Assembly: GCA_963703575.1 (NCBI GenBank)
Contig: CAVPEU010000015.1
Coordinates: 19,762 to 83,761, forward strand
Reading direction: 5' to 3'
Length of the DNA stretch: 64,000 bases
Source: an uncultured Chloroflexia bacterium
Lineage (GTDB): Bacteria > Chloroflexota > Limnocylindria > Limnocylindrales > CSP1-4
This document shows positions 2,510 to 11,963 of the stretch, piece after piece (the first letter of the stretch is position 1; each line of letters begins with the position of its first letter). The position numbers and the translations under genes are program-made. The notes under the pieces are model-generated. The model had not been told where the DNA came from, did not search any database, and saw nothing but the letters and a program-made list of their open reading frames with translations.

Positions 2510-2842
2510 CTATTGCCGCATCGCGTCGTACTCGTCGACGAGCGGCGTCCTGCGGTTGCGGAAGATCGCGATCACGATCGCGAGCCCGACGGTCGCCTCG
2601 GCGGCGGCGGCCGCCATCACGATCAGGACGATCACCGACGCGGTGGTTTTGAGCGAGGGGCTGAACGCGCCGAACGCGATGATCGCGAGGTTGACGGCGT
2701 TGAGCATCAGCTCGATCGACATCAGCATGCTGATCGCGTTCCGCCGGGCCAGGAACCCGAACGCGCCGATCGCGAACAGCAGGCCGGCCAGGACGAGGTA
2801 CGCGTCCAGGGACTGGGAGATCCGGTCGAGCATCGAGAGCAT
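2510..2842 (-). CDS. nuoK: NADH-quinone oxidoreductase subunit K
   Basis: Last 110 aa of the 2510..6346 ORF (MLSMLDRISQSLDAYLVLAGLLFAIGAFGF...). Three TM helices typical of NuoK. ATG at 2842-2840 overlaps the nuoJ stop by 1 nt. Confidence 0.9.
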   Translation of the reverse strand: MLSMLDRISQSLDAYLVLAGLLFAIGAFGFLARRNAISMLMSIELMLNAVNLAIIAFGAFSPSLKTTASVIVLIVMAAAAAEATVGLAIVIAIFRNRRTPLVDEYDAMRQ

Positions 2843-3378
2843 CAGTCGTCCGCCCCGCGCTCGCGCTTGGCGAGGAACACGCCGCCGACCACGGCGGCCA
2901 GGAGCAGGACGCTCACGACCTCGAACGGCAGGACGTAGTCCGTGAACAGCGCGTTCGCCACGTCCTCGGTGCTCGTCCAGACCCGGCCGGCCGTCTGCGG
3001 CCAGTCCGTGGCGGTCACGGTGACCGCGATCAGGATCGCCAGCACCACTGCGGCGATCGCCGCCGGGAGCGCCTGTGTCTGGAACACCAGGCGGCTGGGC
3101 GCGGCCTTGGTCTGGGTGATCATGATCGCGAACAGGACCAGCACGCTGATGGCGCCGATGTAGACGAGTACCTGGGCGCCGGCCACGAGCGGTGCCCCGG
3201 CCATGACGTACAGGCCGGCGAGCGCGCCGAAGGCCACCATCATCGCGAGGCCGCAGCGGATGATGTCGCGCATGCTGACGACCAGCAGCGCGGCACCGAT
3301 CATCACGCCGGCGAACGCGAGGAAGAGCAGGTCGTCCCAACCGATCCCGAGCAACGGGATCGTCCCAGGCAGCGTCAC
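2842..3378 (-). CDS. nuoJ: NADH-quinone oxidoreductase subunit J
   Basis: 178-aa membrane ORF with a NuoJ-like sequence (AGAQVLVYIGAISVLVLFAIMITQ) and operon context. Confidence 0.9.
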   Translation of the reverse strand: MTLPGTIPLLGIGWDDLLFLAFAGVMIGAALLVVSMRDIIRCGLAMMVAFGALAGLYVMAGAPLVAGAQVLVYIGAISVLVLFAIMITQTKAAPSRLVFQTQALPAAIAAVVLAILIAVTVTATDWPQTAGRVWTSTEDVANALFTDYVLPFEVVSVLLLAAVVGGVFLAKRERGADD

Positions 3379-3387
3379 ACGTCCCTC

Positions 3388-6300
3388 TCAGTGATCGTGG
3401 GCGTGGCCCGACCCGTTCCCGGACGCGGCCAGCGCCGCCTGTCCGGTCCCGTGGCCGTTCCCGTTCCCGTTCCCGTTTGCGAGCGAGGCCGGCAGGACCG
3501 GGAGGAGCCGCGAGGAGTCGAGGAGGCGTCCCTCGGCCCGCGCCCGCTCCGCCCAGTCGCGCTCGCGCCGGACGTAGCTCATCTCCGTCTCGCGTTCGAC
3601 CGCGGCCAGCGCGAGGAGGTCGATCATCGGCTCCTCGCGGGACGTGTGGCTGAGCTCGAACTGGTCGCTGTCGCGGACGGCATCGTATGGACAGGCGTCG
3701 ACGCAGATGCCGCACAGGATGCAGCGGCTCTCGTCGACCTCGTACTTCTGCAGGACCCGCGGCTTGGGCATCAGCGCGCCGGTCGGGCACGTCTCCGCGC
3801 ACCGGCCGCAGGACACGCAGGGCGTGTCGTTGAGGCTCATGTCCAGCGGCGTCGTCACCAGGGTGTCGAAGCCGATCCGCATGAAGTCGTAGCACGCCGC
3901 GCCGACGACCTCGGCGCACACGTTCGCGCAGCGGCCGCAGTCGATGCACCGCGACGGCTCCCGGAGGATGAACGCGTGGCTGTCGTCGCGGATGTAGTCG
4001 TGGTTGACGCCCGTGAACCGGTTCTCGGTCACGCTGCGGTAGCCGGCGCCCTGGTGGAACGCGGGCTCCAGCGTCCGGAGCGTGGTCCCGTACTCGATGC
4101 CCAGCCGGCGCAGGTCGCAGAACCCGATCGCCTCGCAGGTGCACTGGAGGCAGCGGGTGGACTCCGCGACGGCCTCGTCCCGGGTGTACGGGATCTCGTA
4201 CTCCATGTAGCTGGTGTTGCGGGCATCCGCCTCGAGGGCCTTGAGGCGGTAGCGCGGCTCCTTGATCTCGCCCGTGAACGGGACGATCGAGAGGAACTCG
4301 GGCTGCGGCTCGGCGAGCGTCTGGCGGGTGCGGATCGCCGCGAGGTCCTGGCCCTTGAGGTAGGCGTCCACCGCGTAGGCGGCACGGCGTCCCTCGGCGA
4401 TCGCCTGGACGACGGTCGCGGCGCCGATCCGCACGTCGCCGGTGCCGAACACGCCGGGCCGGGCCGTCTCGAACGTGACGGCATCCGCGCCCAGCCGGCG
4501 CTGCTTCGTGGCGACCGGGCCGTCGGAGCCGGGACCGATCCAGCGCAGGTCCGGGCCCTGGCCGATGGCCAGCAGCACGCGGTCGCAGGGGATCGTGAAC
4601 TCCGTGCCGGGCGCGGGCTCCGGGCGCCGCCGGCCGGAGGCGTCGGGCTCGCCCAGCTGCATCCGGATGAACTCGACGCCGGTCACCTTGCCGGTCTGCT
4701 CGTCCGTGATGACGCGCGTCGGGCCGGCCTGGAAGATCGCCGTGACCCCTTCCTCGATCGCCTCGTGGACCTCGCCCGACGCGGGCATGTCCTTCATGTC
4801 GCGCCGGTAGACGAGGGTGACCTCCTTCGCGCCCTGGCGGATCGACGTTCGGCTGCAGTCCATCGAGGTGAAGCCGCCGCCGATGACGACCACGCGCGAG
4901 CCCTTGTGCCCCGGGTACTCGAGGCCGAGCGTCGCCGTGCGCAGGTATTCGAGGCCGTCGATGACGCCGTCGGCGTCCTCGTCGGGGATGCCCAGCTTGT
5001 TGGTGTCGTAGCAGCCGATGGCGACGACGACCGCGTCGAAGCCCTGGTTCTGCAGGTCGTCGAGCGTGAAGTCCCTGCCCAGCTCCTGGTTGCACCGGAG
5101 CTGGCCGCCCAGGCGCAGGACCGACTCGTACTCGGCCTCCAGGACCTCGACCTTGGGCAGGCGGTACTGCGGGATGCCGTAGCGGAGCATGCCGCCGGGG
5201 GCGGGGTCCCGCTCGAAGACCGTGACGTCGTGGCCGCTGAGCAGCAGGTAGTAGGCGGCGCTCATGCCGGCCGGGCCGGAGCCGATGACCGCGGCACGAC
5301 GGCCCGACGGCGCCTGGCGCTCGAACGGGATCGGCGGATCCACGTTCTCGTCGAGCATCGACCGGAGGACCTGGTCGCCAGCGTAGCGGTGGCTGTCGCG
5401 GATCGCGATCGCCTCGTCCACCTCGTCCCGGCGGCAGTGCTCCTCGCACGGGGCCGGGCACACCCGGCCGAGCACGGACGGGAACGGGATCGTGCGCTTG
5501 AAGATCCGCGTGCTCTCGCGCCAGTTGGCCTCGGCATTCGCCTTGAGGAAGCCCGGGATGTCGATGTGGCTCGGGCACTTGTTCTGGCACGGCGGCAGGC
5601 AGTAGGCGTTGTGGTCGCTGAAGATCAGCTCGAGGTTCGTCCGCCGCAGCCGGCGCAGATCGTCGGTCTGGGTCTGGACGACCATGTCCGCCTCGGCGTG
5701 GCGGGAGCACGAGATCGGCGGGGTGTCCTCGCCCTCGACCTCGACCACGCACATGCGGCAGGCGCCGAAGCCCGGCAGCTTGGGCTCGTAGCACAGGGTC
5801 GGGATCTCGATCCCGTTGTCCCGGCAGACCTCGAGGATCGTCTGGCCCTCGAAGCCCTCCACGACGCGGCCGTCCACCTCGATCCGGATCCGGGGCGTGC
5901 TCTGCGGGCGTTGCGGCGACTGGGTCGTGATCAACCGCTCGGCGAGCGAATCCTCGCGCGGCGTGAAGGTGTCCAGGAGCGTGGGCGAGTCCGGACGGAC
6001 CTCGCGCGGTCGCTCCAGCCGGGGATCGGGGCGCGTGATCAGGTCGGCCATCTCGGCAATATCCCGGTGGGCCGCGCCGGCCGCCACCGCGATCGGGTGA
6101 CAGACGCCGGCGGGGCAGGTGCTGCGGAGGATGTGGTCGTCGATCTCGGAGCGGAAGTATCGCATCCCGCTCGTGAACGGAAGGGTGGCCAGGCGCTCGT
6201 GGTCGCATAGGCCGCTGGCCGCGATGTCGTGCGCGAGGTCCGCCAGCAGCGTCGCGTCGGTCGGCCTGGGGCGGCCGCCGGCGACCCGGTCGCCGATCTC

Positions 6301-7392
6301 GTACATCCGACGGAGCCCGATCCGGCAGGGGATCGTCTTGCCGCACGCCTCATCGGCCGAGAAGCGGGTCAGCAGCCGGGCCAGGTCCACGACGCAGGCC
6401 CGGTCGTCGGCGATCACCACCGAGCCGGACCCGATATGGGCGCCGGCCGCGCGGAGCGCGTCGAACTCGTAGGGGGTGTCCAGGAGGTCGGCCGGCAGGA
6501 GGCCGCCCGTGGGACCGCCGACGAGGATGGCCTTGAGCGTCCGGCTGCCGGTGCCGCCGACGAGCTCGACCAGCTGGCGCAGCGTCGTCCCGAGCGGGAT
6601 CTCCGCGATGCCGGCACCCTCCGGGCCCCGGAGCTGGACGAGGATCGTGCCGGGGCTGGCGCCGGAGCCGATCGCGGCGAACGCGGCACCGCCCTCGCGG
6701 ACGATCCACGGGACGGCGGCCAGCGTCTGGACGTTGTTGACGACGGTGGGCTTGCCGAACAGGCCCCGCTCGGTGGGGTAGGGCGGCCGCTGCTCGGGCT
6801 GGCCGCGGCGGCCCTCGAGGGCCTTGAGCAGGACGGTCTCCTCGCCCAGCATGTACGCGCCCTGGACCGGGCGAACCGAGAGGAACACCGGGTGGCCGGA
6901 GCCCAGGACGTCCTCGCCGGCGAAGCCGGCCTCCTCGGCCGCGAGGACCGCCGCCTCCAGCCCCGCGACCAGCGCCCCGTCATCCCCGCGGACCGCGAGG
7001 ATGGCCTGCGTGGCCCCGGTCGCGAAGGCCGCGATCACGAGGCCCTCGATGACGGTCCACGGATCGGCGGCGAGGAGCCCGGCGTCCGTGTGCACCGCGG
7101 GGTCCGCGCCGTAGCCGTTGGCGACGACGTACCGCTGGTCCGCGGGCTGCGACGCGGCGGCGCGCCACTTCTCGGCGGTCGGGAACCCGGCGCCGCCGCG
7201 CCCGCGCAGGCCGGCCGCGGCGAGCGTGGCGATCGTGCCCGTGGCCCCCAGGTCCCGGACGGCCTTGCGTAGCCCCTCGAAGGCACCGGCCCGGACGGCC
7301 GCATCCAGGTCGGCGGGGTCGGCGGCGAGCACGTCCACGCGCCCGGTGAGGACGCGGGGCCAGGCGGGCGGCGTGGCGAGGAACGTGGGCAT
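3388..7392 (-). CDS. 1334-aa fusion protein: NuoF-like FMN/NADH domain, NuoG-type 2Fe-2S domain, GltD-like FAD/NAD(P)H oxidoreductase, and multi-[4Fe-4S] ferredoxin domains
   Basis: In-frame part of the 3388..7971 ORF starting at MPTFLATPP; the ATG at 7392-7390 overlaps the upstream stop by 1 nt, and there is no stop codon for 4005 nt. Motifs: GLRGRGGAGFPTAEKW, GAYMLGEETVLLKALEG, DEACGKTIPCRIG, CYEPKLPGFGACRMCVVEV, GRVCPAPCEEHC, AVIGSGPAGMSAAYYL, VVVIGGGFTSMDC, CIDCGRCANVC, CVSCGRCAETCP, CILCGICVDACP. Confidence 0.8.
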   Translation of the reverse strand: MPTFLATPPAWPRVLTGRVDVLAADPADLDAAVRAGAFEGLRKAVRDLGATGTIATLAAAGLRGRGGAGFPTAEKWRAAASQPADQRYVVANGYGADPAVHTDAGLLAADPWTVIEGLVIAAFATGATQAILAVRGDDGALVAGLEAAVLAAEEAGFAGEDVLGSGHPVFLSVRPVQGAYMLGEETVLLKALEGRRGQPEQRPPYPTERGLFGKPTVVNNVQTLAAVPWIVREGGAAFAAIGSGASPGTILVQLRGPEGAGIAEIPLGTTLRQLVELVGGTGSRTLKAILVGGPTGGLLPADLLDTPYEFDALRAAGAHIGSGSVVIADDRACVVDLARLLTRFSADEACGKTIPCRIGLRRMYEIGDRVAGGRPRPTDATLLADLAHDIAASGLCDHERLATLPFTSGMRYFRSEIDDHILRSTCPAGVCHPIAVAAGAAHRDIAEMADLITRPDPRLERPREVRPDSPTLLDTFTPREDSLAERLITTQSPQRPQSTPRIRIEVDGRVVEGFEGQTILEVCRDNGIEIPTLCYEPKLPGFGACRMCVVEVEGEDTPPISCSRHAEADMVVQTQTDDLRRLRRTNLELIFSDHNAYCLPPCQNKCPSHIDIPGFLKANAEANWRESTRIFKRTIPFPSVLGRVCPAPCEEHCRRDEVDEAIAIRDSHRYAGDQVLRSMLDENVDPPIPFERQAPSGRRAAVIGSGPAGMSAAYYLLLSGHDVTVFERDPAPGGMLRYGIPQYRLPKVEVLEAEYESVLRLGGQLRCNQELGRDFTLDDLQNQGFDAVVVAIGCYDTNKLGIPDEDADGVIDGLEYLRTATLGLEYPGHKGSRVVVIGGGFTSMDCSRTSIRQGAKEVTLVYRRDMKDMPASGEVHEAIEEGVTAIFQAGPTRVITDEQTGKVTGVEFIRMQLGEPDASGRRRPEPAPGTEFTIPCDRVLLAIGQGPDLRWIGPGSDGPVATKQRRLGADAVTFETARPGVFGTGDVRIGAATVVQAIAEGRRAAYAVDAYLKGQDLAAIRTRQTLAEPQPEFLSIVPFTGEIKEPRYRLKALEADARNTSYMEYEIPYTRDEAVAESTRCLQCTCEAIGFCDLRRLGIEYGTTLRTLEPAFHQGAGYRSVTENRFTGVNHDYIRDDSHAFILREPSRCIDCGRCANVCAEVVGAACYDFMRIGFDTLVTTPLDMSLNDTPCVSCGRCAETCPTGALMPKPRVLQKYEVDESRCILCGICVDACPYDAVRDSDQFELSHTSREEPMIDLLALAAVERETEMSYVRRERDWAERARAEGRLLDSSRLLPVLPASLANGNGNGNGHGTGQAALAASGNGSGHAHDH

Positions 7393-8054
7393 CAGTCCTG
7401 GCGCCCTCCGTAGCCCAGGGAGGCGTCCAGCGAGGAGCGGTACGCGGACTCGAGGACGCGGTGCGCCTCGCCGGCGGCCGGTGCGGCGGTGATCGCCGGC
7501 GGCTCGAACCGCAGGTGGCGGTAGTACGTGGCGGTCCCGTAGATCATCGCGTACCAGGCGCCCGTCACCCGCGAGATGTGCTTGAGCGCGGCGACCGGCA
7601 GGTAGCCGTACTCCGCCTGCGTCTCCTCGAGGATCGCGAGCATGTCCCTGGGGTCGTAGTCGTGCGCCTCGAGGATCGCGTCGATCGGCGTGGTGTCGAT
7701 GCCCTCGAAGCGGGCGTAGTCGCCGTCCGCCACCGGGCGGCCGGAGCGCCGGAGCGCCGATTCCTCGCGCCGCTCGTCGTACGTCTCGGGCGCGCCCCAG
7801 TGGACGTGGAACCGGCCCTTCGTGTCCACGCCGCCCATGTCGATGCACTCGATCGGGCAGGCCTGGGCGCACTGGAAGCACGTCTCGCACTTGAGCGTGC
7901 CGTACTCGTCGTACAGCAGCTGCAGGCGGCCGCGGAACTTCGGCGCGACGTCCGCCCGGACCTCGGGCCACTGGATGGTCGCCTTGGGCTGGAAGAACCG
8001 CCGCAGCGTGAGGCCCATGCCGCGGACCATGCCCATCCCCGGGATCGTGCTCAT
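7392..8054 (-). CDS. nuoI: NuoI-like subunit (single 4Fe-4S motif) fused to a cysteine-free NuoE-like N-terminal domain
   Basis: 220-aa ORF. The N-terminus (MVRGMGLTLRRFFQPKATIQWPE...PKFRGR...KCETCFQCAQACP) resembles NuoI. The C-terminal part (DAILEAHDYDPRDMLAILEETQAEYGYLPVAALKHISRVTGAWYAMIYGTATYYRHLRF) resembles the NuoE N-terminal helical domain. Confidence 0.8.
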   Translation of the reverse strand: MSTIPGMGMVRGMGLTLRRFFQPKATIQWPEVRADVAPKFRGRLQLLYDEYGTLKCETCFQCAQACPIECIDMGGVDTKGRFHVHWGAPETYDERREESALRRSGRPVADGDYARFEGIDTTPIDAILEAHDYDPRDMLAILEETQAEYGYLPVAALKHISRVTGAWYAMIYGTATYYRHLRFEPPAITAAPAAGEAHRVLESAYRSSLDASLGYGGRQD

Positions 8055-8058
8055 CGGG

Positions 8059-9411
8059 TCACCCGCCCTTCACGGACTGGACCACGAGGATCGCCGCCGC
8101 GGTCAGGAACAGGTTGAGGAGCGCGGCCGGCAGCAGCCACTTCCAGGCCAGCCCCATCAGCTGGTCGATGCGGACCCGCGGCAGCGTGCCGCGCATCCAC
8201 ACGAAGATGAACACGAAGATGAACGACTTGGCCATGAACCAGACGAGGCCGGCGACCCAGTCCAGCCCGACATAGGCGACGCCGAACAGCGCTCCGGCCG
8301 CCAGCAGGCCGGAGAGGAGGAAGCCGAGCACGAGCGCCTGCCAGGCCGGCGTGGAGCTGCGGGCGAGGTAGAACGGCGCCGCGAACAGCAGCGTCAGCAC
8401 CAGGGGGCCGGCCGCGACGAGGATCGGCAGCCCGACCCCGAGCGAGCCCGGGTCCAGCGCGAGCGTGATGTGGGGGAACGGGAAGGGCGCGTTCCAGGCA
8501 CCGAAGAACAGCGTGACGATCAGCGCCGAGACGATGAACACGTTCACGTACTCGGCGAAGTACAGGAAGCCGAACCGCATGCCGGAGTACTCGGTCGCGA
8601 ACCCGGCGACGATCTCCGAGTCCGCCTCGGTCAGGTCGAACGGGGTCCGGTTCGCCTCCGCGGTGGCGGCGATGAAGAAGATCAGCGCGCCCAGGGGCTG
8701 GCGGAACACGAACCAGCTGGTGAACCAGCCCTCCTGTGCCTGCGCGATGTCGTAGACGCTCAGGGTGCCGGCCAGCAGGATCAGCCCCACCACCGAGAGC
8801 GTGAGCGGGATCTCGTAGCTCACGATCTGCGCGGCGGACCGCAGGCCGCCCACCAGCGAGTACTTGTTGAAGCTGGACCAGCCGGCCATCAGCAGGCCGA
8901 CGACGGTCATGCCGCCGACCGCGAACAGGTACAGCAGGCCGATGTTGAGGTCCTGGCCCACCAGCCCCGGGCCGAACGGGATGACCATGAACGTCATCAC
9001 CGCGGTCAGGAACACCACCACCGGGGCCAGGGTGAACACGATGCGGTCCGCCCCGGTGGGAGTGAAGTCCTCCTTGAGCAGGACCTTGAACCCGTGGACC
9101 ACCGACATCGCCGCCCCGCCGGGCCCGATCCGGTTGGGCCCGACCCGGAGGTTCATGTAGGCGATGACCTTGAGCTCCATGTAGATGATGATGAACGCGG
9201 CCGGGATGCTGAACACCAGGACCCCGACGACGGCGACCAGGAACCGGACGATGCCGATGTTCGAGGCCAGGACGTCCACGACCCACGGGCCCACGAACAC
9301 CGCGACCAGCACGGTCAGGACCGGCGCGACAACCAGCAGCAGGAACAGCAGCGGCAGCAGCACCTTGCCGGTGAGGGTCAGGTTGCCCCAGGCACGGTTC
9401 AGCATCGTCAT
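8059..9411 (-). CDS. nuoH: NADH-quinone oxidoreductase subunit H, with an N-terminal extension
   Basis: 450-aa membrane ORF with LRVGPNRIGPGG, FTLAPVVVF and EYSGMRFGFLYFAEY motifs typical of NuoH/ND1. Confidence 0.95.
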   Translation of the reverse strand: MTMLNRAWGNLTLTGKVLLPLLFLLLVVAPVLTVLVAVFVGPWVVDVLASNIGIVRFLVAVVGVLVFSIPAAFIIIYMELKVIAYMNLRVGPNRIGPGGAAMSVVHGFKVLLKEDFTPTGADRIVFTLAPVVVFLTAVMTFMVIPFGPGLVGQDLNIGLLYLFAVGGMTVVGLLMAGWSSFNKYSLVGGLRSAAQIVSYEIPLTLSVVGLILLAGTLSVYDIAQAQEGWFTSWFVFRQPLGALIFFIAATAEANRTPFDLTEADSEIVAGFATEYSGMRFGFLYFAEYVNVFIVSALIVTLFFGAWNAPFPFPHITLALDPGSLGVGLPILVAAGPLVLTLLFAAPFYLARSSTPAWQALVLGFLLSGLLAAGALFGVAYVGLDWVAGLVWFMAKSFIFVFIFVWMRGTLPRVRIDQLMGLAWKWLLPAALLNLFLTAAAILVVQSVKGG

Positions 9412-9418
9412 CGCGGCC

Positions 9419-10654
9419 CTACTTGTCGATGCCGCCCATGACCGGGTCCAGCGAGGCCATCACGGCCATCGTGTCCGCGATCAGGTTGTTGCGCATCATC
9501 GGCCCGACCAGCTGGAGGTTCACGAACGACGGGTCGTGGATCTTCATCCGGAACGGCTGGTCCGTGCCGTCGGAGATCACGTACGTTCCATACATGCCGC
9601 GGGGCGCCTCGACGGCCGCCCAGGCGCGCCCCGGGCGCGGGCGGAGCAGCCGCGGCAGCCGGGCCATGACGGGCCCGTCGGGCATGTTGTGGAGGCACTG
9701 GTCGATGATCCGGAGGCTCTGCTTGACCTCGTCCAGGCGCAGCAGGTAGCGGTCCAGCGAATCCCCGCCGGCGTGGCCGCGGGTCGGGATGTCGAACTCG
9801 AGCTCCGGGTAGACCGAGTAGGGGTGCGCCCGCCGGACGTCGAACGGGACGCCGGCCGCCCGGATGTTCGGTCCCGTGGTGCCCATCCGGAGCGCCGTCT
9901 CGCGGTCCAGCACGCCGATGCCCCGCATCCGGCGCACGAAGATCTCGTTCTCGTTGAGCAGCTGCATGTTCGCTTCGTGCTGGGCGGTCGCACGGCTCAT
10001 CCAGTCGCCGAGGCGGGACATGAACTCGTGGTTCAGGTCCCCGTTGACGCCGCCGATCCGGAAGTAGTTGAACAGCATCCGCTGGCCGGTGATGGCGGCC
10101 AGCATCTCCACGATCTCGTCGCGCTCGATGAAGCTGTACAGGATCGGGGTGAGGCCACCGAGGTCCAGCGCCATCCAGCCCATGTACAACCCGTGGCTGG
10201 CGACCCGGTTCAGCTCCCCGGTCAGGACCCGGATGTACTCCGCCCGCCGCGGCACCTGGACGTCAAGCAGCTGCTCGAACGCCATCACCGGTGCCCACTC
10301 CATGAACAGCGAGCTCACGTACTCGAGCGGGTCCACCTGGCTGAGGATGTGGTGATAGTCCGAGTTCTCGCACAGCTTCTCCACGCCGCGGTGGAGATAG
10401 CCGAGGACAGGGTCCAGGTCCACGACCTGCTCGCCGTTGATCTTGAGCACGATGCGCAGCACCCCGTGCGTGGACGGGTGCTGCGGGCCCATGTTGAGGA
10501 ACATCTCGCCGTCCCGGAGCGAGTAGAACTCGGCCTCGCGCTCGGTGCGCGGCGGGTACGGCGGGACGGCCTCGAACGCACCGATCTGGTCGTCGAGGAG
10601 GATCCGCGGGTCGTCCGCGGACGGGTGCTGGTGGGGCGCGGCGGGAGCGGTCAT
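9419..10654 (-). CDS. nuoD: NADH-quinone oxidoreductase subunit D
   Basis: Start at MTAPAAPHQ (ATG 10654-10652). NuoD motifs FLNMGPQHPSTHGVLRIVL, YLHRGVEKL, EAPRGMYG; C-terminal VMGGIDK. Confidence 0.95.
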   Translation of the reverse strand: MTAPAAPHQHPSADDPRILLDDQIGAFEAVPPYPPRTEREAEFYSLRDGEMFLNMGPQHPSTHGVLRIVLKINGEQVVDLDPVLGYLHRGVEKLCENSDYHHILSQVDPLEYVSSLFMEWAPVMAFEQLLDVQVPRRAEYIRVLTGELNRVASHGLYMGWMALDLGGLTPILYSFIERDEIVEMLAAITGQRMLFNYFRIGGVNGDLNHEFMSRLGDWMSRATAQHEANMQLLNENEIFVRRMRGIGVLDRETALRMGTTGPNIRAAGVPFDVRRAHPYSVYPELEFDIPTRGHAGGDSLDRYLLRLDEVKQSLRIIDQCLHNMPDGPVMARLPRLLRPRPGRAWAAVEAPRGMYGTYVISDGTDQPFRMKIHDPSFVNLQLVGPMMRNNLIADTMAVMASLDPVMGGIDK

Positions 10655-10656
10655 CG

Positions 10657-11205
10657 TCAGGCCTTCACGGTGCGGCGGACCACGGACGGCGTCGCCTGCG
10701 CCGGGACGTGGGTCTGCTCCATGTGGCGGACCCCGCCGCCCGGTGACCGGGCGGCATCGTCTGCCAGGTAGAAATCCTTGCGCAGCGGGAAGCTGGTGTA
10801 GTCGGGCGGCATGTAGATCCGCCGCAGGTCGCGGTTGCCCTCGAAGATGATCCCGAACATGTCGTAGGTCTCGCGCTCCATCCACTCCGCGCCGGGCCAC
10901 AGGCCGGTGAGGGTGGGGATCCGCGGGTCGTCGCGCGGCATGCCGTCCGCGATCACCCGCAGCCAGTCCGCCGTGTTGGGCGACCAGAGGTGGTAGACGA
11001 CCTGCATGTGGGTGCCGGTGTCCACCCCGGCGAGGTCGGCGAGGATCTCGAACCCCAGCTGCGGGTCGTCGTGCAGCTCGCGCATCACCTCCGGCACGTC
11101 GGCCGGCCGGATCCGGATCTCGGTCTGGTCGTGGCGCTGGCGGACGGGGCCGGTGAGGCGCTCGCCGAACTGCGCCTCGAGGCGCTTGCGGAGGCTCCGG
11201 TCCAT
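10657..11205 (-). CDS. nuoC: NADH-quinone oxidoreductase subunit C
   Basis: Start at MDRSLRKRLEAQFG (ATG 11205-11203). NuoC motif WPGAEWMERETYDMFGIIFEGN. Confidence 0.9.
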   Translation of the reverse strand: MDRSLRKRLEAQFGERLTGPVRQRHDQTEIRIRPADVPEVMRELHDDPQLGFEILADLAGVDTGTHMQVVYHLWSPNTADWLRVIADGMPRDDPRIPTLTGLWPGAEWMERETYDMFGIIFEGNRDLRRIYMPPDYTSFPLRKDFYLADDAARSPGGGVRHMEQTHVPAQATPSVVRRTVKA

Positions 11206-11207
11206 GC

Positions 11208-11963
11208 CTAGACGTCCTCCGGCACGGTGGGGCCGATCGGGCGCTCGTGCCACTGGCCGCGCCGCTCCTTGACCAGCTGGCCCAGCTTCATCATCCCGTA
11301 GATCAGGCCCTCCGGGCGGGGTGGGCAGCCCGGCACGTAGACATCGACCGGCAGGACTCGGTCGATGCCCTCGATGGTGGAGTAGCTGCGCTTGTAGCGG
11401 CCGCCGGAGCACGTGCAATCGCCCATTGCCAGGGCCCATTTCGGCTCCGGCATCTCCTCCCACAGGCGGACCAGCGGGCCGGCCATCTTCGTGGTCAGGG
11501 TGCCGGCGACGATCAGGACGTCCGCCTGGCGGGGCGAGGCGCGGAACGGGAACATGCCCCAGCGGTCCATGTCGTTCCTGGACGTTGCGGCGGACATCAT
11601 CTCGATCGCGCAGCAGGCGAGCCCGGACAGCAGCGGCCACAGGCTGTTCATCCGGATCAGGTCCAGGACGACGTCCGCCCGGGTCGGGATCACCTCGAGG
11701 GCGCCCCAACGGGCGTTGTCCCTGACGACCAGCTCGGAGCCTTCCAGGTCGCGCAGGTGCGTGTGCTCGGTCGGCAGGCCGCCGCCGTACGCCTCGGGGC
11801 GCGTGGACGCCCACAGCGTGTTGGGCACGACGATCGGCCGGGTCAGGTCCTGCGGGCCCGCCGCGGCCAGGGACGTGGGACGCTCGCCGTCCCGGCCGGA
11901 TGCCTCGGGGCCGTCGCCCGGCCCGGGACCCGGGATCGCGTCCGGCCCGGGACCGGGGGTCAT
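11208..11963 (-). CDS. nuoB: NADH-quinone oxidoreductase subunit B, with a Pro/Gly-rich N-terminal extension
   Basis: NuoB core motifs [36 protein letters not shown] (N2 cluster cysteines). ATG at 11963 makes an ATGA overlap with nuoA; an alternative GTG lies at 11990. Confidence 0.9.

Follow-up and report, generated by a model that had tools for sequence, protein, structure and literature searches.

Complex I is regarded as an enzyme of NADH (or of ferredoxin or F420), and to our knowledge its use of NADPH has been obtained only by engineering NuoF. The closest described relatives of the locus considered here are the soluble NADPH:NAD+/ferredoxin transhydrogenases StnABC/Nfn-Bfu (NfnABC, NsoABC; PDB: 8oh5, 9bov, 9n5u), which are encoded in the order NuoE-like, NuoF-like, and a large subunit that combines a 2Fe-2S domain, a GltD domain, and HydA-type clusters. 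Two hallmark motifs of the large subunit, HxxxCxxxCxxxCP and CxxCxCxxxxxC, arose when GltD joined a NuoG-like protein (PMC7483475). In Nfn-BfuA, electrons follow the route FAD-A7-A6-A3-A2-A1-B1 from flavin adenine dinucleotide (FAD), with A2 acting as a Y-junction whose third branch, toward the formate dehydrogenase (Fdh)-like domain, is idle (PMC12018979; PMC10482914). Here we describe a 1334-amino-acid (aa) open reading frame (ORF) that combines parts homologous to these enzymes and lies inside a complex I (nuo) operon, on a 64,000-nucleotide (nt) stretch of contig CAVPEU010000015.1 (GCA_963703575.1; hereafter the window) from an uncultured member of the Limnocylindrales in the phylum Chloroflexota.

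The ORF runs on the minus strand from an ATG at 7392 to a stop at 3388 (coordinates are window positions, and features are on the minus strand unless stated otherwise). Its place in a conserved nuoABCDH...JKLMN operon, between nuoH and nuoJ, bears out the initial annotation, made from motifs, of an electron-input module of complex I. We predict, with a probability of roughly 0.6, that its product is the peripheral electron-input module of a respiratory complex I specific to Chloroflexota, in which electrons would pass from NADPH to FAD, through a split NuoI, and on to quinone without bifurcation. By profile and motif evidence, NuoI is divided between two polypeptides, and the input module is nested between its halves; both the split and the nesting had been missed in the initial annotation.

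Over its full length (3388–7392; ORF translation and Pfam/NCBIfam), the ORF joins a NuoF-like part, here NuoF', in frame to a StnC-like protein that ends in the C-terminal half of NuoI. Pfam and NCBIfam searches, with E-values of 1e-15 to 1e-165 in this frame, place Complex1_51K at aa 59–228, NADH_4Fe-4S at aa 336–420, Fer2_4 at aa 501–576, Fer4_20 at aa 598–675, Pyr_redox_2 at aa 700–1001, and Fer4_Nqo3 plus Fer4 at aa 1142–1239, returning the domain order that had been read from motifs. Each of those motifs is found on the minus strand of 3388–7392: GLRGRGGAGF (aa 61–70), NGYGADP (92–98), GEETV (183–187), CGKTIPC (350–356), CYEPKLPGFGACRMC (534–548), HNAYCLPPCQNKCP (594–607), GSGPAG (704–709), GGGFTSMDC (838–846), and, near the C-terminus, the Cys motifs CIDCGRCANVC (1149–1159), CVSCGRCAETCP (1192–1203), and CILCGICVDACP (1224–1235). 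A Gly/Asn/His-rich tail ends the protein. As had been noted, there is no molybdopterin-like NuoG domain in the 1334-aa protein, either by Pfam or by alignment to PDB structures.

From Met448 onward (887 aa; 3388–6051), the chain is a StnC/NfnA-Bfu-like protein, an assignment based on PDB matches and on relatives 82–91% identical, in which this part is a separate gene. In a PDB search, residues 502–1214 (approximately 710 aa) align end to end with the Stn/Nfn-Bfu large subunit (9bov_A, 1e-160; 9n5u_A, 1e-141; 8oh5_C, 1e-139). This region includes a plant-type, N1b/FS2-like [2Fe-2S] domain with invariant Cys (aa 501–580; 5653–5892; PF13510), a GltD/NfnL-like insertion that starts with HxxxCxxxCxxxCP (aa 594–1015; 4348–5613; PF14691, PF07992, and StnC alignment), and, by profile and StnC alignment, the second half of a split N5-type motif, CLQCTCEAIGFC, together with the FS4 pair CIDCGRCANVC/CVSCGRCAETCP (3778–4152). 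The alignment fades at approximately aa 1214, the entry of the StnC Fdh-like domain, where the window chain goes on with ...YEVDESRCILCGICVDACPYDAV..FEL. The GltD insertion contains two sequence-assigned [4Fe-4S] sites, an FAD site (GSGPAG), and an NADPH site (GGGFTSMDC...VYRRDMKDMPAS), and both flanking hallmark motifs are present.

Conservation in the family is strongest along this part of the chain. The segment at 3778–4152 is the most constrained (mean identity 93%; ratio of nonsynonymous to synonymous substitution rates, dN/dS, 0.10), and the Cys of the 2Fe-2S domain, of both GltD clusters, of the split N5, of the FS4 pair, and of both NuoI halves are invariant, as are GSGPAG and the YRRDMKDMPA loop. 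The YRR that follows beta-2 agrees with the NADPH-dependent E. coli GltD and with StnC, whose homologous site binds NADPH and FAD (PMC10482914), whereas the NAD-dependent PreT has ARE. Full-length homology to StnC/NfnA-Bfu and this NADPH-type loop support an NADPH-linked GltD-like domain, one of the two electron sources considered initially; for the other, ferredoxin, no evidence was found. At the fourth-ligand position of the FAD-proximal [4Fe-4S] cluster, His668 (5374–5397, minus strand) is invariant. All nuo-embedded forms have His at this position, while Stn/Nfn-Bfu has Lys and NfnL has Glu; since His is also present in the distant Chloroflexota loci L089 and L091, it looks like a clade-specific ligand switch.

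The other half of NuoI is encoded by the preceding gene, ORF220 (7392–8054), which consists of the NuoI N-half, a linker, and a truncated NuoE (NuoI profile; Pfam 2Fe-2S_thioredx), and whose stop overlaps the ATG of the 1334-aa ORF (TGATG). Residues 1–80 of ORF220 form the N-half, which opens with YPE..RFRG.. and holds a single Cys motif, CETCFQCAQACP. The C-half (YEVDESRCILCGICVDACPYDAV...FELSH) occupies aa 1206–1262 of the 1334-aa protein (3607–3777). Against the NCBIfam NuoI model TIGR01971, ORF220 aa 12–77 match positions 1–65 of 121 and the C-terminus of the 1334-aa protein matches positions 71–116, scoring 48 and 58 bits alone; when spliced, the two cover positions 1–116 with 95.5 bits. 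In this form they run colinear with NuoI of E. coli (30% identity) and with a diverse set of canonical NuoI proteins (32–38%), and the splice point falls in the variable loop between the motifs. Thus the two CxxCxxCxxxCP motifs of NuoI are not on one chain but on ORF220 and on the C-terminus of the 1334-aa protein. The FS4 motifs pair as in HydA/StnC, with a spacing of 32 aa, which leaves CILCGICVDACP and the ORF220 motif each without a partner; we therefore take the last Cys motif and that of ORF220 to be mutual partners. Of the three NuoG/HydA-like Cys clusters initially described, the first two are indeed FS4-type, and the third belongs to the NuoI C-half.

Interruption of NuoI, and nothing else, would also fit a decaying relic of a nuo operon in which nuoI is merely disrupted and the module is a soluble enzyme. 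However, the NuoI halves keep their invariant Cys and show dN/dS values of 0.21–0.23 (0.21 for the C-half), all nuo genes are intact and coupled by overlaps of 1–4 nt, and the Fdh-like domain is lost exactly at the attachment point of NuoI-C. The nested layout is moreover retained across hundreds of species, distant classes included, and we give the relic scarcely any credence.

The NuoE portion of ORF220 (NuoE') spans aa ~121–190 and corresponds to the N-terminal helical part of NuoE (positions 1–63 of 145 in 2Fe-2S_thioredx); the Pfam profile finds neither the 2Fe-2S domain nor the cluster Cys of NuoE in this part. BLASTP of ORF220 against E. coli NuoE returned no match, and the assignment is based on profile matches and on the complete NuoE that some distant members have. 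The linker between the two portions (aa 81–120, RFHVHWGAPETYDERREESALRRSGRP; 7815–7694, minus strand) is near-invariant in Limnocylindrales, has no recognisable homology, and is probably a structured contact.

We propose that a three-gene soluble cassette of the Stn/Nfn-Bfu type (NuoE-like, NuoF-like, and NuoG N-terminus with GltD) came to lie inside nuoI of an 11-subunit-type operon, such that the NuoI N-half was fused to NuoE' and the C-half to the end of the StnC-like protein, where it would have replaced the Fdh-like domain. A hydride from NADPH would be passed to the FAD of the GltD-like domain, and single electrons would then reach the junction cluster of the HydA-type pair by way of both GltD [4Fe-4S] clusters and the split N5. 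Exit would be through the second FS4 cluster, along the branch left unused in soluble Nfn-Bfu, into N6a/N6b, NuoI clusters that would here be built from two polypeptides, and from there through N2 (NuoB) to quinone at NuoD/NuoH, which would power proton pumping by NuoL/M/N. This path via FS4 to NuoI is proposed because the FS4 pair is complete and NuoI-C follows 20 residues later, at the place of the third branch. The other branch, from the 2Fe-2S cluster through an N3-like cluster with three Cys and a Thr to the NuoF' pocket, is under weaker constraint; it may act as a scaffold or provide a secondary site for NADH.

Several observations weigh against this model. The 20-aa gap between the last two Cys motifs of the 1334-aa protein also resembles that of an ordinary 2x[4Fe-4S] ferredoxin, so the pairing with ORF220 derives from StnC homology and not from observation. 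AlphaFold2 models of the spliced NuoI reached a predicted local distance difference test score of 39.6 from a single sequence and 45.2 with eight canonical NuoI rows; with scores this low, complementation between the two halves has sequence evidence as its basis. The pocket motifs of NuoF' (the Gly loop, GEE, and N-x-Y-G-A-D) are conserved even in deep lineages, which argues that NuoF' still does something specific. Finally, all members of the family are metagenome-assembled genome (MAG) or metagenome sequences.

NuoF' (aa 1–447; 6052–7392) has a flavin mononucleotide (FMN)-domain fold, an SLBB domain, and an N3 domain (PF01512/PF10589, alignment with E. coli NuoF), and its residues 24–434 align with the NuoF-like partners of Stn/Nfn-Bfu in the PDB search. 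GLRGRGGAGF, GEET, and VVNNVQTL, the last with a variable first Asn, are 90–100% conserved in the NuoF' family; in the family alignment, the Gly-rich loop is approximately 93% conserved and GEE is invariant. The pocket motif NADExEPG (E. coli N90–G97) is replaced by NGYGADPA (D92Y, E93G, E95D), and the altered motif is conserved in the family and also in L089 and L091, with N-[AG]-Y-G-A-D in deep lineages. Instead of four Cys, the N3 ligand positions hold Cys350, Thr353, Cys356, and Cys396. At the second position, 42 of 69 sequences have Thr, 26 have Ser, and one has Cys, and the other three Cys are invariant; in L089, it is the third Cys that is lost (to Gly). NuoF' and NuoE-N have a mean identity of 66–68% and dN/dS of 0.37–0.39, equal to that of the unconserved tail, compared with 84–93% and 0.10–0.23 along the GltD/FS4/NuoI path, and so evolve approximately 2–4 times faster. 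The changes to motif and Cys that had suggested a degenerate NuoF are real, but they are conserved rather than random. A NuoF that is simply degenerate was ruled out, as the variant motif is kept across deep lineages even though constraint is relaxed overall. All nuo-embedded forms of NuoF' close with CP[AT]GxC (window aa 426–431; 6100–6117, minus strand), in the variants CPAGVC, CPTGHC, and CPTGKC, with CPACVC in the distant locus L085; the motif may be what is left of a metal site, or it may connect to the GltD cluster domain.

These features bear on the possibility of a dual-input or transhydrogenase-coupled complex I, in which NuoF' would oxidise NADH with FMN while GltD handles NADPH, with both inputs converging on the junction cluster and quinone, or in which the module would also equilibrate NADH and NADPH. 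Y-shaped wiring would permit such an arrangement, and it is consistent with the conserved Gly-rich loop, the invariant GEE and three N3 Cys (Thr/Ser being the fourth residue), the conservative nature of the change of E. coli Glu95 to Asp, and the sharing of the N-[AG]-Y-G-A-D variant by deeply diverged lineages. It is harder to reconcile with the faster evolution of NuoF'/NuoE', with the replacement of Asp92 and Glu93 of the flavin/nicotinamide pocket by Tyr and Gly, or with an erosion of N3 ligands that differs by lineage (Cys2 to Thr/Ser in the window family, Cys3 to Gly in L089), and we consider dual input unlikely.

Bifurcation had also been suggested, by analogy with Nfn- and HydABC-type enzymes. 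A bifurcating or confurcating complex of the Nuo-Bfu type would oxidise NAD(P)H and ferredoxin jointly for quinone reduction, and homology to subunits of the bifurcating Stn/Nfn-Bfu/HydABC enzymes points in this direction, as do the Nuo-Bfu complexes predicted in other phyla (PMC9304861). However, NuoF' matches the NuoF core only (positions 113–526 of 584 in the PDB chain); Pfam and PDB alignment find in it none of the extra BfuB clusters (N-terminal 2Fe-2S, C-terminal 4Fe-4S/ferredoxin), and NuoE' is without its 2Fe-2S domain. The absence of such clusters is the stated sign of non-bifurcating homologues (Schut et al.; PMC9304861), and the GltD FAD of StnC/NfnA is a non-bifurcating flavin. With the extra clusters of BfuB missing, and that of BfuC as well, bifurcation appears highly improbable.

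The single 1334-aa frame is itself exceptional. In approximately 76 of the 79 related loci that are informative, NuoF' (~445 aa) and the StnC-like protein (~887 aa) are encoded by two overlapping genes. The nearest database relatives (82–91% identity) are proteins of 884–889 aa and match no more than the C-terminal two thirds. Records of the exact 1334-aa sequence are confined to one 88.6-kb contig, and the other 155 members of its 90% identity cluster are 884–888 aa long. The clean layout [NuoI-N+NuoE-N] | [NuoF'] | [Fer2-GltD-FS4-NuoI-C] is present in 68 of 82 related loci, among which the stop at the NuoF'/Fer2 junction is absent only in L012, L002, and L057; L002 and L057 contain frameshift garbage, and L012 deviates from the CPAGVC consensus just before the junction. 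In the syntenic operon of L001, NuoF' (444 aa) has a gene of its own, whose stop overlaps the start of the 889-aa gene (TGATG). The initial description of a single-ORF fusion is correct for the window, where the ORF is uninterrupted, but relatives have a stop before the ATG corresponding to 6051, and the fused state is a singleton.

The junction is a hypervariable spacer of approximately 20 nt before the conserved ATGGCCGACCTGATC, with a Shine-Dalgarno (SD)-like GGGA; in comparison with relatives, the window version (6052–6084) is stop-free and 1 nt longer. The stop of NuoF' in relatives varies between an upstream TAG, TGATG, and a TGA inside the next gene. In the window, the internal ATG (6051–6049) and the SD-like GGGA are kept despite the open frame. 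Given the singleton state and the longer, stop-free spacer, the fusion is due either to misassembly or to an in-frame indel of recent date, with the downstream start kept in both cases. We see close to an even chance that the single ORF comes from an indel introduced during sequencing or assembly, or from a very recent change in this strain, so that the real products are NuoF' (~447 aa) and the 887-aa protein; the rarity of the fused frame, the flaws in the other fused loci, and the retained start all favour this. On the other hand, several substitutions, not a single homopolymer slip, separate the junction from its relatives, the spacer is naturally hypervariable with a stop position that already shifts among relatives, and the neighbouring nuo genes of the window are intact. 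An indel would affect the observation of one ORF only and is compatible with the favoured explanation, an NADPH-linked input module of complex I.

With 72% GC, the window contains long chance ORFs in all frames. The frame of the 1334-aa ORF is open up to 7971, but this additional stretch overlaps the genuine upstream gene, which is read in another frame. Two spurious ORFs, of 1278 aa (2510–6346, minus strand) and 939 aa (3391–6210, plus strand), overlap the 1334-aa ORF in other frames, a result of the high GC content and a trap for arguments from ORF length and for gene callers. The poorly conserved tail (3388–3606; family conservation, dN/dS) comprises a conserved helical stretch followed by the Gly/Asn/His-rich end.

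A scan of species-representative genomes yielded at least 579 relatives, of which the best 80 were examined; all of these are from Limnocylindrales/Chloroflexota MAGs, and the nuoABCDH-[module]-JKLMN operon is conserved in 80 Limnocylindrales loci. Named relatives belong to the Chloroflexi, Ca. Limnocylindria, and Ktedonobacterales. The ORF220 chimera occurs in 2,947 clusters at 90% identity, labelled 'ferredoxin', 'hypothetical', or 'subunit E', and its NuoI-N half is kept in distant members (26–31% identity), some with a complete four-Cys NuoE. The nested layout is also present in the distant Chloroflexota loci L085, L089, and L091; in the latter two, it comprises NuoF' plus the StnC-like/NuoI-C protein. 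In L091 (6481–17865; Chloroflexi MAG), the module follows nuoABCDH with no nuoJKLMN behind it, and is followed by flavin reductase, small ferredoxin, and pyruvate:ferredoxin oxidoreductase genes.

L085 (1321–6023; 49% GC) has a sister design that mirrors the window family, where NuoF is the altered part and GltD the intact one. It encodes an [NuoI-N::complete NuoE] protein, then a thioredoxin-like 2Fe-2S domain with a canonical NuoF and a C-terminal GltD with a degenerate or NADH-like second dinucleotide site; the third gene is a 265-aa NuoG-N-terminus::NuoI-C. Proteins of ~1030 aa with a NuoE-NuoF-GltD architecture were rejected as the same system, as P0027 and P0120 lie in soluble hydrogenase-type operons and only L085 is nuo-embedded.

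In the window, the minus-strand order is an NDUFAF7-like methyltransferase, nuoA, B, C, D, and H, ORF220, the 1334-aa ORF, and nuoJ, K, L, and M. By Pfam, nuoA lies at 11960 to ~12349, nuoB at 11208 to ~11963 (11990 with an alternative start), nuoC at 10657–11205, nuoD at 9419–10654, nuoH at 8059–9411, nuoJ at 2842–3378, nuoK at 2510–2842, nuoL at 446–2494, and nuoM, cut by the window end, at 1–440. L001 and L002 contain the full syntenic nuo set with three antiporter-like subunits, including nuoN. The N2 cysteines of NuoB (GLACC, GDC, GCPP) and the quinone-site motifs of NuoD (GPQHPSTHG, GYLHRG) are canonical, the NuoB and NuoD of the window contain no NiFe ligands, and no further nuoE, nuoF, nuoG, or nuoI is found within the 64 kb. 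The wider neighbours are housekeeping genes (PurH, GlpX, ClpB, DnaJ). This setting offers no pointer to lithotrophy, and counts against reverse operation of the complex as a quinol:NADP+ reductase, driven by the proton-motive force, that would supply NADPH for biosynthesis or CO2 fixation. The reversibility of complex I and of Stn-type modules and the presence of an NADPH-type site are compatible with such a role, which we nevertheless judge very unlikely.

Three further features of the operon were observed. Directly upstream of nuoA, as in L001 and L002, is an S-adenosylmethionine methyltransferase similar to NDUFAF7 (PF02636; 12519–13883, minus strand). Mitochondrial NDUFAF7 methylates the NuoD homologue, and in Actinomarina an NDUFAF7-like methyltransferase has been reported adjoining an 11-subunit complex I. 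NuoH is 450 aa long compared with 325 aa in E. coli, and shorter in L085, L091, and L084 (321–372 aa); it has an extra hydrophobic stretch of ~70 aa between the regions that align to E. coli ~274 and ~269–321, probably two additional transmembrane helices. NuoB (249–251 aa in total, as in L001; start uncertain) has a Pro/Gly-rich N-terminal extension of ~100 aa.

Bacteria of the Limnocylindria/Ellin6529 type are very abundant in soils and groundwater, and a natural NADPH-linked complex I, if true, would alter models of their redox balance. The locus would also be a case of modular rewiring, in which an N-module was gained inside nuoI, elsewhere than at the classical nuoEFG insertion, a 2x[4Fe-4S] ferredoxin domain is split across two chains, and the 'idle' third branch of the Nfn-Bfu Y-junction is put to use. 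More tentatively, and on balance short of what we would assert, it may represent a second independent origin of a pyridine-nucleotide N-module: an NADPH-specific, proton-pumping complex I with a two-chain NuoI ferredoxin domain that would be the main respiratory entry in abundant, uncultured soil Chloroflexota. Current annotations read 'FAD-dependent oxidoreductase', 'formate dehydrogenase major subunit', 'ferredoxin', and 'NuoE', and metabolic reconstructions will therefore score the complex I of such organisms as incomplete.

The architecture had initially been taken as new, and a search of the open-access literature found related concepts only; no prior description of a nested module or split NuoI was found there, although absence from this literature is no proof. 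Open-access papers on Limnocylindria contain no discussion of complex I, Schut et al. 2022 (PMC9304861) do not mention a NuoI split or a Chloroflexota Nuo form, and papers on heliorhodopsin and on deep-sea Chloroflexi describe ordinary 11-subunit operons. Among complex I-related systems, the Nuo-Bfu operons predicted in Geobacter, Deferribacteres, Planctomycetes, and Nitrospirae (Schut et al. 2022; PMC9304861) similarly have the NADH module replaced by HydABC/Bfu-type subunits, but with full BfuB/BfuC clusters, no GltD, and an intact NuoI. In Mbx-like operons (Degli Esposti 2015), which belong to the complex I family, the place of NuoI is taken by a GltD-type NAD(P)H flavoprotein; however, these operons are Mbx/hydrogenase-derived, are proposed to reduce NAD(P)+, and have NuoI substituted, whereas in the window NuoI is kept but split and GltD is embedded in a NuoG-like chain. 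The 11-subunit complex I/NDH-1/Fpo enzymes share the nuoABCDHIJKLMN backbone and the adjoining NDUFAF7-like methyltransferase, but use ferredoxin or F420H2 via unrelated adaptors, instead of a pyridine-nucleotide module covalently tied to NuoI.

With canonical 14-subunit complex I, the window system shares homologous folds of NuoF, the NuoE N-terminus, and the NuoG N-terminus, as well as the Q- and P-modules, N2, and the Q-site. It differs in that the module lies inside nuoI and not between nuoD and nuoH, in having a GltD flavoprotein domain, no molybdopterin-like NuoG domain, and a two-chain NuoI, and in its likely donor, NADPH via FAD rather than NADH via FMN. With Stn/Nfn-Bfu it shares, besides the gene order, the hallmark motifs, the FAD and NADPH (YRR) sites, and an equivalent of R239. 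Unlike those soluble enzymes, the window module is, judging from its genes, membrane-linked through nuo; NuoI-C replaces the Fdh/molybdopterin-like domain, NuoF' has no extra clusters, an altered pocket, and a three-Cys N3, the NuoE-like part has no 2Fe-2S and is fused to the NuoI N-half, and His replaces Lys at the FAD-proximal cluster of a system predicted to be non-bifurcating. What is new is thus the combination, within a complex I, of a split NuoI with an alternative input module derived from Stn, the related concepts being already known.

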